From the IMG/VR virus record IMGVR_UViG_3300033463_000032, positions 64,411-128,410 of that record: DNA of 64,000 nucleotides, one strand, 5' to 3'. Shown here one piece after another: positions 33,190-35,467 of this stretch. A program made the position numbers and the translations under genes. The stretch is from a virus. Taxonomy: Duplodnaviria; Caudoviricetes. The notes beneath the pieces are model-generated. The model had not been told where the DNA came from. It searched no databases and saw only the letters and a list, made by a program, of their open reading frames with translations. Positions within the stretch are counted from its first letter, which is position 1. Each line of letters begins with the position of its first letter.

Positions 33190-33281
33190 GTAAGCAGAAA
33201 AGTTCTAAGGGTTTTATCTGGGAATATGCTAAAACAGATAATTAATATTTTATATTTATTTAAAGGAGGTGATGATAGCAG

Positions 33282-33368
33282 GTGATTAACTTTGGTGATA
33301 TTACAAAAATCAATGGAATGGAAGTTCCAATGGTAGATATTGTTACTGGTGGAAGTCCCTGCCAATAG
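33282..33368 (+). CDS. N-terminal segment of C5 DNA methyltransferase (motifs III-IV including catalytic PCQ), ends at TAG
   Basis: AAAGGAGGTG RBS; translates (M)INFGDITKINGMEVPMVDIVTGGSPCQ*. Confidence 0.85.
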   Translation: MINFGDITKINGMEVPMVDIVTGGSPCQ

Positions 33369-33373
33369 CGCAT

Positions 33374-35467
33374 GATCTTAGTGTTGCTGGAAAAAGAAAA
33401 GGATTAGATGGTGAAAGATCAGGTTTGTTTCTTGAACAAATAAGAGTTATTAAGGAGATGCGTGATTATGACAAAAGAGTTAATGGGAGAACAGGTGAGT
33501 TTATTCGACCAAGATATATGGTGTGGGAGAACGTCATTGGATGTTTCAGTTCCAATAACGGAGAAGATTTCAGGTGTGTCTTGCAAGAAACAATCAACAT
33601 CATTGACTCAACCACCAATGTTCCTGGATTGCCGAAAGGAGCGCAATGGTCTAAATCTGGGGTTGTTCTGGGAGATGGATGGTCTATCGCTTGGAGAGTA
33701 CATGACGCACAGTTTTGGGGAGTCCCCCAAAGACGTAAAAGAATCTCGCTTATCGCAGATTTTGGAGGACAATCCGCACCTGAAATACTCTTTGAGCGCA
33801 AAAGCGAGTATAGGGATCTTGAACAGAGCCAAGAAAAGGGGCAAGACACTTCCACCACAATTGGAGATAGCATTGCAGAAACAAGCGAATCTGATGTAAA
33901 GTCTTATGGTTGTGATTTAAAATCTGGTAGAATTTCCGGTAATATTTCACCTACATTAACAACCAGATCAGGAAATTCTGCTACTACTGGTGGTCAAGTA
34001 TTAACTGTTAAAGAAGGTTGTCTTAATTCTTGGGAAGTACAAAGTAAACATATACAACCTTCCAATGGTATTGCTGAAAGTTTGTATTCTGGTGAAACTA
34101 GATATGGTGGTGGAGAATCATATGTTTTAGATGATACTAAAGTTTATGGTATATCTGCTTATGATAGTAATGCTATGAAATCAGATAATCCTAATAGTGG
34201 AATTTATGAAGCTGATACTGCAAGAACTTTAGATTTAAATGGTGGTAATCCGGCATGTAATCAAGGTGGTATGGCAGTAGTGTATACAAACTATAAGGCT
34301 GATGGAGCTACTGGAAATGATATTGCTTTTGCTACTGTAGGAGATCATGAGAACAGACCTACTGATATGACGAACTTAGTTGTAAAACAATGTTCTAAAG
34401 ATGCTGATAGTAAACTCACATTTAGAAAGACAGGACACCCTCAAAATTCAGAAGAAGGGCAAGGTTGGGAAGAATGTAATATTAATGATACATTGAATGT
34501 TACTGATAATTCAGAAACTAGAACACCTACATTAGTTGTAGATCAAGGTGCTGGAAAGTCACAATGTAATGTATCAGAAGAAGTAACACCTACTCTTACT
34601 ACTACTCACGGTGGTGAACCTGTTATATCTTGTGAAGTTTTTCATTGTAGTACAGAAGAAGAAGTAGCAGCACCATTAAAGGCCAGAGATTTTAAAGATC
34701 CTCAAATTGTTAAAACACAAGATGTTTATGGAATAGATCAACAAGGCGGTAAAGGTCAAGGAAACTATACCATTAATGTAGCACCTACAATGGCATCTGA
34801 AAGTCATGGAACACCTCATGCAGTATGCTATGATAAAGAACAACAGAAAGAACATATTTATAGCTTAGAAGGTAATGGATCAAGAGATAGTCATAAAGGT
34901 GATGGATATTCTGAATCTGAGGTTATGTATACTTTAAATACAGTAGAACAACATGCGGTATGTTGTTCTGGTTCAGAAACATATCAAAAAACTTCTGGGT
35001 GTCTTAATGCTAGTGGTTATGATAAGTTAGGTACTCAAGAAGCTACTAATGATATGTATGTTGCTAATTCTTCTATTGTTCGTAGACTTACACCATTGGA
35101 ATGTACTAGACTTCAAGGATTCTATGATCATTGGTGTGATATTGGAGATTGGTATGATACTAAAGGAAAACTTCATAAGGATTCAGATTCAGTAAAGTAT
35201 AAAGCATTAGGTAATTCCATTGCTTTGCCTTTCTGGAAATGGATGGCTAAGAGAATGGTTAGTCAATATCCTAGTGATTATAAACCTACTATGGCTAGTC
35301 TGTTTGATGGTATTGGTGGCTTTCCTTTGTCTTATTATGAAGCTGGTTGTAAACCTGTTTGGAATAGTGAAATTGAAGAATTTCCTATGGCAGTAACAAG
35401 AAAACATTTTGGTGATGAAACTACCGGAGAAGTAGGAGATCTGGAAAAGTTTTATGAAAACAAATAA
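33374..35467 (+). CDS. Main body of a circularly permuted, multi-TRD C5 cytosine DNA methyltransferase
   Basis: Frame resumes DLSVAGKRKGLDGERSGLF; WENV (VI), PQRRKR (VIII), about 10 target-recognition (TRD)-like repeats, RRLTPLECTRLQGF (IX), YKALGNS (X), then SLFDGIGG (I) and SEIE (II) at the C-terminus. Confidence 0.9.
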   Translation, partial: DLSVAGKRKGLDGERSGLFLEQIRVIKEMRDYDKRVNGRTGEFIRPRYMVWENVIGCFSSNNGEDFRCVLQETINIIDSTTNVPGLPKGAQWSKSGVVLGDGWSIAWRVHDAQFWGVPQRRKRISLIADFGGQSAPEILFERKSEYRDLEQSQEKGQDTSTTIGDSIAETSESDVKSYGCDLKSGRISGNISPTLTTRSGNSATTGGQVLTVKEGCLNSWEVQSKHIQPSNGIAESLYSGETRYGGGESYVLDDTKVYGISAYDSNAMKSDNPNSGIYEADTARTLDLNGGNPACNQGGMAVVYTNYKADGATGNDIAFATVGDHENRPTDMTNLVVKQCSKDADSKLTFRKTGHPQNSEEGQGWEECNINDTLNVTDNSETRTPTLVVDQGAGKSQCNVSEEVTPTLTTTHGGEPVISCEVFHCSTEEEVAAPLKARDFKDPQIVKTQDVYGIDQQGGKGQGNYTINVAPTMASESHGTPHAVCYDKEQQKEHIYSLEGNGSRDSHKGDGYSESEVMYTLNTVEQHAVCCSGSETYQKTSGCLNASGYDKLGTQEATNDMYVANSSIVRRLTPLECTRLQGFYDHWCDIGDWYDTKGKLHKDSDSVKYKALGNSIALPFWKWMAKRMVSQYPSDYKPTMASLFDGIGGFPLSYYEAGCKPVWNSEIEEFPMAVTRKHFGDETTGEVGDLEKFYENK
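33468..33899 (+). CDS. Alternative-frame MTase beta-like subunit nested in the MTase gene
   Basis: AAGGAG RBS at 33452-33457; SRLSQILE..PHLKYSLSAKA..GILNRAKKRGK.LP..L..AL resembles the M.EcoHK31I beta polypeptide. Confidence 0.75.
   Translation: MTKELMGEQVSLFDQDIWCGRTSLDVSVPITEKISGVSCKKQSTSLTQPPMFLDCRKERNGLNLGLFWEMDGLSLGEYMTHSFGESPKDVKESRLSQILEDNPHLKYSLSAKASIGILNRAKKRGKTLPPQLEIALQKQANLM

Follow-up and report, generated by a model that had tools for sequence, protein, structure and literature searches.

To our knowledge, only a handful of natural translational bypasses are known, in T4 gene 60 with its cassette relatives, in terminases of the Hau3 type and in one yeast mitochondrion. Here, we describe a candidate addition in a Caudoviricetes phage, found in a 64,000-nucleotide (nt) stretch of DNA (the window; positions 64,411 to 128,410 of the IMG/VR record IMGVR_UViG_3300033463_000032). 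The gene concerned encodes a C5 DNA cytosine methylase whose catalytic Pro-Cys-Gln (PCQ) motif is followed by an 8-nt sequence, TAGCGCAT, that begins with a stop codon and puts the remainder of the gene into another frame. Ribosomes translating the gene probably hop over these 8 nt, which would make them a short programmed coding gap.

Several described systems invite comparison. Short-gap bypassing is described for the large terminase (g6/7/8) of the Streptomyces phage Hau3 and for the terminases of StrepC.1 and an S. catenulae prophage, whose inserts (10 nt, and 7 nt in prophages) lead with a slow codon (PMC10732093). A stop can replace that slow leading codon, and with UAA a junction peptide of the Hau3 type was detected by mass spectrometry in E. 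coli (PMC10732093). T4 gene 60 has a 50-nt bypass within a MobA homing-endonuclease element (bioRxiv 10.1101/2022.08.31.505936; PMC5009743). Stop-hops in E. coli (Weiss, Dunn, Atkins and Gesteland 1987, as cited in PMC5009743 and PMC10732093) are described in the citing papers as departures of a peptidyl-tRNA with a stop in the A site, followed by re-pairing a few nt on, at distances of +5 and +6. In prfB (RF2), too, a stop in the A site triggers the recoding needed for a full-length product.

The methylase locus shares some features with each of these systems and departs from each in others. As with the frame-disrupting inserts of 7-10 nt in the Hau3-type terminases, the gap lies in a phage enzyme gene, and its flanks are adjacent in insert-free counterparts. 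The Hau3 leader, however, is a rare sense codon (UUA) tied to the host bldA tRNA, whereas the methylase gaps open with a true stop, UAG (UGA in one relative). The terminase insert occurs in 3 of 100 terminases, compared with well over 100 methylase contigs here, and it belongs to another gene family; the methylase site lies inside a catalytic motif, with gaps down to 4 nt. T4 gene 60 is likewise a coding gap in a conserved phage enzyme gene with UAG directly after the take-off codon and linked homing endonucleases (here upstream in some relatives), and in both the gap persists without the nuclease. The 50 nt skipped there contrast with 8 nt here, where a significant take-off stem-loop, a Shine-Dalgarno sequence within the gap and an identified nascent-peptide signal are all lacking; the landing codon nearly matches the take-off codon but is not identical to it, no nuclease lies beside the window's gene, and there is no homology to the MobA cassette. 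The E. coli stop-hops, as the citing papers present them, are low-level events in synthetic or reporter constructs with matched codons, whereas the methylase case would be natural, conserved and required for the enzyme. Unlike prfB, with its slippery CUU_U, overlapping re-pairing, upstream Shine-Dalgarno sequence and fixed +1 shift, the methylase genes have no slippery codon, and the frame change varies among relatives (0, +1, +2). The locus has several hallmarks of bypassing, namely a removable insert absent from counterparts, a stop 3' of the take-off codon and a conserved gap with selected flanks; a stimulatory mRNA structure at the take-off site or an internal Shine-Dalgarno sequence was not found. 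Short-gap bypassing is already documented; for C5 methylases, our literature search found no report of bypassing or frameshifting at the PCQ site.

The methylase gene and its interruption

The original prediction, made from the window's sequence, described a ribosome-binding site, a GTG start, a frame closing ...DIVTGGSPCQ and followed directly by TAG, an 8-nt gap, and a continuation, DLSVAGKRKGL, that stays open to the stop. All of these hold on re-reading (Table 1). PCQ (33357-65) and DLSVAG are both present but contiguous only if the stop-led gap is skipped, and the frame downstream of it is open throughout its 697 codons. The PF00145 profile aligns its positions 46-72 with the short N-terminal piece (N piece) and continues from position 73 on the next piece, which makes the junction exact to the residue. 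The catalytic Cys sits on the N piece, and the enzyme therefore needs both pieces in one chain.

Table 1. Features of the methylase gene in the window
Feature	Position	Strand	Remarks
Shine-Dalgarno GGAGG	33265..33269	+	Part of a conserved GGAGGTGATG block; same block before the start in L018, L022, L024, L385, L386
N piece, GTG start, 28 codons	33282..33365	+	Ends GGSPCQ (motif IV, catalytic Cys); PF00145 positions 46-72
Stem-loop of the original prediction	33362..33390	+	Pairing exists; unsupported as an element
Proposed take-off codon CAA (Gln)	33363..33365	+	TGC CAA before the stop in 7/7 loci pattern-matched (6 distinct TAG gap types)
8-nt coding gap TAGCGCAT	33366..33373	+	UAG 33366-68; proposed landing triplet CAT 33371-73
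Main methylase frame from GAT (Asp), DLSVAGKRKGL...	33374..35467	+	Stop 35465-67 included; different frame from the N piece
Motif VI WENV	33524-35	+	
Motif VIII QRRKR	33728-42	+	
Motif IX RRLTPLECTRLQGF	35081-122	+	
Motif X GNSIALP	35210-30	+	
Motif I LFDGIGGF (FxGxG, S-adenosylmethionine binding)	35300-23	+	C-terminal end; PF00145 positions 3-54
Motif II	35363-80	+	

C5-methylase motifs I, VI (ENV), VIII (QxRxR), IX and X are all present in the gene, with a long variable target-recognition domain (TRD) between motifs VIII and IX. The motifs do not follow the canonical I-to-X order; along the DNA, PF00145 positions run 44-72, 73-129, 134-197, 207-322 and then 3-54. The resulting motif order, IV-VI-VIII-TRD-IX-X-I-II, marks the gene as a circularly permuted C5 methylase that is opened between motifs III and IV. 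M.BssHII is a circularly permuted C5 methylase as well, with motif I after motif X in a single chain, although its permutation point precedes motif IX. Engineered permuted forms of M.SssI and M.MpeI exist and are of the same permuted, single-chain kind (PMC5944983).

Roughly 100 of the 120 closest metagenomic homologues share the permuted layout, starting M-x-H-x-GDITKI...GGSPCQDLSVAGKR and ending with motif I, and about 100 of the 120 read GGSPCQDLSVAGKR unbroken. An AlphaFold model of an uninterrupted family member is confident in the catalytic parts and has M.HhaI, M.HaeIII and M.MpeI as its best Foldseek matches (E ~3e-7); the predicted local distance difference test score (pLDDT) is below 50 at residues 29-52, the catalytic loop. 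The gene is also uninterrupted in the cultured or annotated relatives FP_Toutatis, Saumur and Ruminococcus phage NatCom_28274. A megablast search of the window's gene against GenBank phages gave no match.

Authenticity and recurrence of the gap

The 8 nt are genuine and do not reflect an assembly slip. They are present with zero differences in a 47.7-kb contig of the source run, which is not independent of the window, and the independent L006, a 4.8-kb Logan contig from a different run and the nearest relative, carries the identical TAGCGCAT; the comparison is of contigs, not reads, and minor gap-less DNA variants could stay hidden in it. A third run (X5), from another study, holds a 128,775-bp contig of a sister phage that is ~88% identical over the gene, lacks exactly these 8 nt and reads an uninterrupted CCT TGT CAG GAT. 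The gap is therefore polymorphic among sister phages. The window's CCC TGC CAA before the gap differs from the ungapped sister's CCT TGT CAG at all three wobble positions and agrees with other genes in which CAA precedes TAG, a pattern suggestive of a small cassette copied into the gene.

The original prediction asked whether a stop-containing gap recurs at the PCQ/DLS site of homologues, and it does so in two C5-methylase subfamilies, with lengths of 4, 6, 7 and 8 nt. About 20 of the 120 closest homologues have a gene call without the N piece, and all of those with readable DNA have a stop-led gap at the same site. Gene callers split or truncate gapped methylases, beginning at MRDYDK... in the window and at MDGERSG... 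in L006. The catalytic Cys is then missing from annotations, and phage methylomes and anti-restriction capacity are hence under-predicted in gut and rumen viromes.

In the permuted subfamily, the 8-nt form of the window and L006 is joined by two 7-nt gaps, TAGGCAT between TGC CAA and GAC (L018-21; four assemblies, contigs up to 200 kb) and TAGGCGA between TGC CAA and GAT (L022), by an in-frame 6-nt gap, TAGCGA between TGC CAA and GAC (L387), and by a 4-nt gap, TAGN between TGT and CAR GAY (L023, L024, L385, L386). The second subfamily has canonical motif order (...YSFPCQ/DLSVAGK...) and carries, between TGC CAA and GAC, the 6-nt gap TAGCAT in L391 and the 8-nt gap TAGTGCAT in its sister contig L393, a difference of 2 nt; in L396 and L397, the 7-nt gap TGAACAC lies between TGC CAG and GAT. 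Among the 120 best short proteins corresponding to the N-terminal part of this subfamily, 22 end exactly at PCQ and 2 at PC, and one of them, read at the DNA level, is the TGA-led gap of L396 and L397, the sole exception to a leading TAG. Removing the gap yields PCQDLS in every variant found. The CAA-TAG forms share the pattern TGC CAA TAG N0-2 (CAT or CGA) GAY, and their lengths of 6, 7 and 8 nt cover all three frames.

The 4-nt form, TGT TAG H CAR GAY, is abundant. It occurs in at least 118 contigs of IMG/VR and in 9 contigs of GTDB genomes, the latter from metagenome-assembled genomes of Butyrivibrio, Dysosmobacter, Oribacterium and other Clostridia; human-faecal 'Bacteriophage sp.' records in GenBank carry it without annotation. 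The Cys codon is TGT in 118 of the 118 4-nt contigs listed, with CCY for Pro. Uninterrupted permuted relatives (n=26) use TGC in 14 and TGT in 12, CAG in 18 and CAA in 8, and mostly CCG for Pro. IMG/VR scans returned no contig with TAA or TGA in place of the TAG of the 4-nt form, and 4-nt inserts that do not start with T gave four chance matches and no methylase. The exact TAGCGCAT and the 7-nt and 8-nt CAR-TAG forms had no match in IMG/VR (own record excluded), and a looser TGCCAATAG scan of that database found only L391 and L393. A metagenome scan for CAATAG N1-12 GAYYT... gave at least 120 matches, of which none listed is preceded by PC; all are chance.

Selection on both flanks

Both flanks of the gap are under purifying selection, each in its own frame, as judged from substitution patterns, and function appears to be retained. 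In the 4-nt class (86 distinct sequences, with 0.60-0.74 synonymous differences per site), the ratio of nonsynonymous to synonymous differences (pN/pS) is 0.38 for the frame of the N piece and 0.31 for the DLS frame downstream, compared with 1.1-1.8 in other frames. Among the CAA-TAG lineages (window or L006, L018, L022, L387), pN/pS values, which are uncorrected and near saturation, are 0.19-0.46 for the N piece and 0.33-0.65 for the next 200 codons, and the downstream open reading frames (ORFs) are intact at 634-1068 codons. Between the window and L006, the first 29 codons past the gap differ by 6 synonymous and 2 non-synonymous changes, and the variable middle of the gene has been exchanged in frame. 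Across the relatives compared, the gap is real, recurrent and stop-led, lies at one exact site and separates flanks that are selected in their own frames; the hop itself, the assignment of take-off and landing codons and any regulatory use are what we infer from this pattern.

A proposed stop-hop and its alternatives

In the proposed stop-hop, ribosomes would translate 28 codons from GTG 33282 up to CAA (Gln), where UAG would occupy the A site and be slow to resolve. The peptidyl-tRNA-Gln (anticodon UUG) would unpair from CAA, the mRNA would slide by 8 nt, and the tRNA would re-pair on the near-cognate CAU (33371-73), with decoding restarting at GAU (33374). The outcome would be an active, circularly permuted C5 cytosine methylase in one chain, whose catalytic loop has the canonical sequence GGSPCQDLSVAGK. 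Termination at UAG would yield a 28-residue peptide only, and the gap would thereby lower methylase output. The tRNA-Gln(UUG) of the phage's own tRNA cluster is the tRNA that such a hop would use.

Features of the gaps point to this mechanism. In the CAR-stop class, gaps of 6, 7 and 8 nt span all three frames, and therefore no single frameshift or read-through event would decode all of them, whereas one kind of hop would. The triplet before the resume codon is also always CAT, CAC or CGA, the first such triplet 3' of the stop, and each of these pairs with the tRNA-Gln from CAA or CAG at two of three positions. The near-match of CAT to the take-off codon CAA noted in the original prediction generalises to a set of landing triplets, with CAA leading to CAU or CGA and CAG to CAC in relatives, although the match extends to just two of three positions.

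The gap might instead be translated, by a shift at the stop (+2/-1 in the window, +1 with gaps of 4 and 7 nt) or by read-through (gaps of 6 nt), adding 1-3 residues to the catalytic loop and giving PCQ-(I)AH-DLS here and PC-R/S-QDLS, PCQ-RH-DLS or PCQ-RR-DLS elsewhere. A stop in the A site is a well-known setting for frameshifts, as in prfB and in Euplotes, where stops trigger +1 and +2 shifts; every new-frame triplet within the gaps is a sense triplet, and the loop that would accommodate the extra residues is flexible by its pLDDT (<50 at residues 29-52). We nonetheless regard translation of the gap as unlikely, because gaps of 6, 7 and 8 nt would demand three mechanisms among close relatives and no overlapping re-pairing is available to the codons in the P site (CAA to AAU or CCA; UGU to GUU). 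The implied inserts also vary in length and chemistry, with R and S interchanging on near-identical backgrounds, and none of the ~100 uninterrupted homologues among the 120 closest has a residue inserted in PCQDLS. Nor does the site look like a programmed frameshift, as CCC UGC CAA UAG contains no slippery sequence and the homologous gaps measure 4, 6, 7 and 8 nt. It is similarly improbable, in our estimate, that the gene is a dead or switched-off allele, in which a small insertion (for example, a repair scar after cleavage of the PCQ DNA by a homing endonuclease or other nuclease) killed the methylase and left the phage without the activity. The intact CCT TGT CAG GAT in a sister phage of equal genome size, the confinement of the 8-nt form to two contigs that are nearly identical around the gap, and the homing-endonuclease genes directly upstream in several gap-bearing relatives would all fit such a loss. 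The original prediction had held that uninterrupted relatives together with decay of the gene would speak against it; the uninterrupted sister exists, but decay is not seen. The 697-codon frame is open despite 32% G+C, a variable region has been swapped in frame between the window and L006, and substitutions on both sides of the gap show a synonymous bias. Moreover, the 4-nt break persists to near-saturated synonymous divergence with pN/pS of 0.3-0.4 in both frames, and the inserts are always stop-led and confined to two adjacent positions, unlike random scars.

Removal of the 8 nt from the nucleic acid, which the original prediction named as an alternative, could mean cutting them out of the mRNA or deleting them precisely from some of the DNA molecules; it would account, as the hop does, for all three frames and an exact PCQDLS. 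We consider it quite unlikely, since we know of no machinery that cuts 4-8 nt out of bacterial or phage mRNA, the gap lacks the flanking direct repeats that would permit precise DNA deletion, and there is no conserved structure around it; the source-run contigs are gapped only, though contigs hide minor variants. Least credible of all is a split enzyme, in which the 28-residue peptide with the catalytic Cys would assemble in trans with a second chain restarted past the stop. M.AquI is a split C5 methylase. Fragment-complementing C5 methylases also exist among engineered permuted and fragment forms (PMC5944983). In the window and its relatives, however, the DLS frame has no start codon at the gap or close to it: the frame of ATG 33372 is the wrong one, and TTG 33425 in the window and TTG 1694 in L006 are not shared. 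The cut would also fall within the catalytic loop, and the codons directly after the gap are under selection.

Several observations weigh against the stop-hop. The gap-free sister phage means that the 8-nt insertion may be recent, and the exact 8-nt form is found in only two contigs, ~97% identical around the gap. The dN/dS values between the window and L006 are moderate (0.40 and 0.20 for the conserved ends) and, taken alone, give weaker evidence than the wider classes. The near-identity of L391 and L393 leaves room for one of the two to be a newly inactivated allele. The window's CAA and CAU match at just two of three positions, and the triplets on offer to tRNA-Cys in the 4-nt class (AGA, AGC, AGU) are poor landing sites, so this class needs a different detail or mechanism; alternatively, tRNA-Gln might read UAG near-cognately there and then re-pair on CAR four bases on. 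Fifteen gap-bearing sequences show no significant or shared RNA structure (fold z -1.6 to +0.8), Rfam has no match at the gap, and the gap is too short for an internal Shine-Dalgarno sequence of the gene 60 type. The hop is a reading drawn from the comparison of sequences.

Comparison treats the parts of the original prediction differently. Its core, that the gap is skipped to rebuild PCQ/DLS, is strengthened considerably by the recurrence of the gap, by gap lengths in all three frames and by selection on the flanks, while the stem-loop and the GCGC that it invoked as props fall away. The pairing of 33362-71 with 33381-90 does exist (9 of 10 pairs, three of them G-U), but it is neither significant nor conserved. 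It is the minimum free energy (MFE) structure of the isolated 41-mer at -7.9 kcal/mol (z = -1.0; 39 of 200 shuffles fold equally well) and is not part of the 70-nt MFE structure (z = -0.42). Compensatory pairing across homologues, about which the original prediction had asked, is not seen: L006 has lost one pair, and the other gap types fold differently. The GCGC within the gap is indeed a rare sequence in the window, but its proposed role as a methylation target is rejected, since no other gap variant contains it.

Whether the 4-8-nt stop-led micro-gaps in the Pro-Cys-Gln motif make up a large natural stop-hop family is, in our judgement, evenly balanced. Such a family would comprise hundreds of genes of two subfamilies in gut and rumen phages, with a near-cognate CAY/CGA landing triplet, not a fixed shift, setting the point of resumption, and its gaps may spread as a cassette conferring homing-endonuclease immunity while throttling output. 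If true, this would be a bypass family of well over a hundred members in which gap length (4, 6, 7 or 8 nt) and the stop (of two kinds) vary and the landing triplets are defined, and it would offer a ready mutational series on what makes a ribosome leave a stop and where it lands. If the hop throttles output, phages would have a new means of dosing an enzyme that modifies DNA.

Homing endonucleases and a possible origin of the gaps

The gap that accompanies MobA in T4 gene 60 is proposed to destroy the target of the nuclease (bioRxiv 10.1101/2022.08.31.505936). By analogy, we tentatively suggest that the methylase gaps may have spread, or been kept, because each disrupts a homing-endonuclease site in the conserved PCQ DNA. 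Genes of the GIY-YIG, NUMOD3 or HNH type lie immediately upstream of the gapped methylase in L018-21, L024, L386, L396, the P0107 contig and six IMG/VR loci. Of the two nuclease families tested, homologues lie upstream in 0 of 20 uninterrupted permuted loci and, within the 4-nt class, at only 6 of 106 loci. The gapped methylase piece is also found where no nuclease accompanies it, and there is no homing endonuclease among the 8 ORFs neighbouring the window's methylase. Given this absence and the rarity in the 4-nt class, immunity is offered here as a conjecture.

The free-standing nuclease genes abut the start of the gapped methylase at L018:738-1403, L024:748-1401, L386:547-1110 and L396:1972-2508, and three kinds occur at these starts: NUMOD3/I-HmuI-like, GIY-YIG and HNH_3/NUMOD4. 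Some 1,100-residue relatives (P0021, P0049) contain the Hint/intein domains PF07591 and PF14890 inside the methylase; the same gene family has therefore also been invaded at the level of protein splicing.

Genomic setting and additional features

The IMG/VR record is 128,410 bp long and has direct terminal repeats; the window covers its second half, and bovine gut metagenomes are the sole public runs that contain the whole stretch; the gene is a rumen phage's DNA cytosine methylase. The phage genome has a G+C content of 32% and 10 tRNA genes, clustered outside the window at G000:C1:11128-14629, and the cloverleaf of the tRNA-Gln(UUG) among them is unremarkable. The standard genetic code is in use, and TAG is the rarest stop among the long ORFs of the genome (10 of 133). 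Reassignment of TAG or a suppressor tRNA is rejected as an explanation of the gap, since a CUA anticodon is absent from all 10 phage tRNAs and long ORFs gain just 8.5% in length when TAG is read as sense; it would be insufficient in any case, because a reassigned TAG would leave the frame unrestored.

GCGC is scarce, with 7 occurrences in the window (13475, 33368, 33641, 33796, 46433, 48566 and 49778) against ~43 expected from base composition, and 3 of the 7 fall inside the methylase gene. Genome-wide, it is depleted ~7-fold (12 in 128 kb, ~83 expected), which suggests avoidance of a GCGC-type restriction site.

The variable region of the methylase gene (33950-35000) differs from that of L006 by modules swapped, deleted or inserted in frame, while the conserved ends are ~90% identical. 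In the 4-nt class (L025-L142), many loci stop 123-202 codons after the gap, and these methylases may be split again downstream by other gaps, inserted genes or separate subunits; the L391 methylase is in at least three pieces. A 145-codon ORF on the + strand (33462-33899), preceded by AAGGAG, lies wholly within the window's methylase gene in another frame. It has no Pfam match, and its translation is nearly as conserved across the family as the main frame: tblastn segment pairs of at least 110 aa were obtained at 156 loci for this ORF (median identity 44%), at 141 loci for the main frame (51%) and at 44 loci for the third frame (33%). This ORF may be an overprinted gene. Finally, in the large phages represented by L391 and L393, proteins with PARP-catalytic, WGR and Macro domains are encoded a few genes from the gapped methylase (L391:3671-4681, - strand; L393:1966-3659, + strand).

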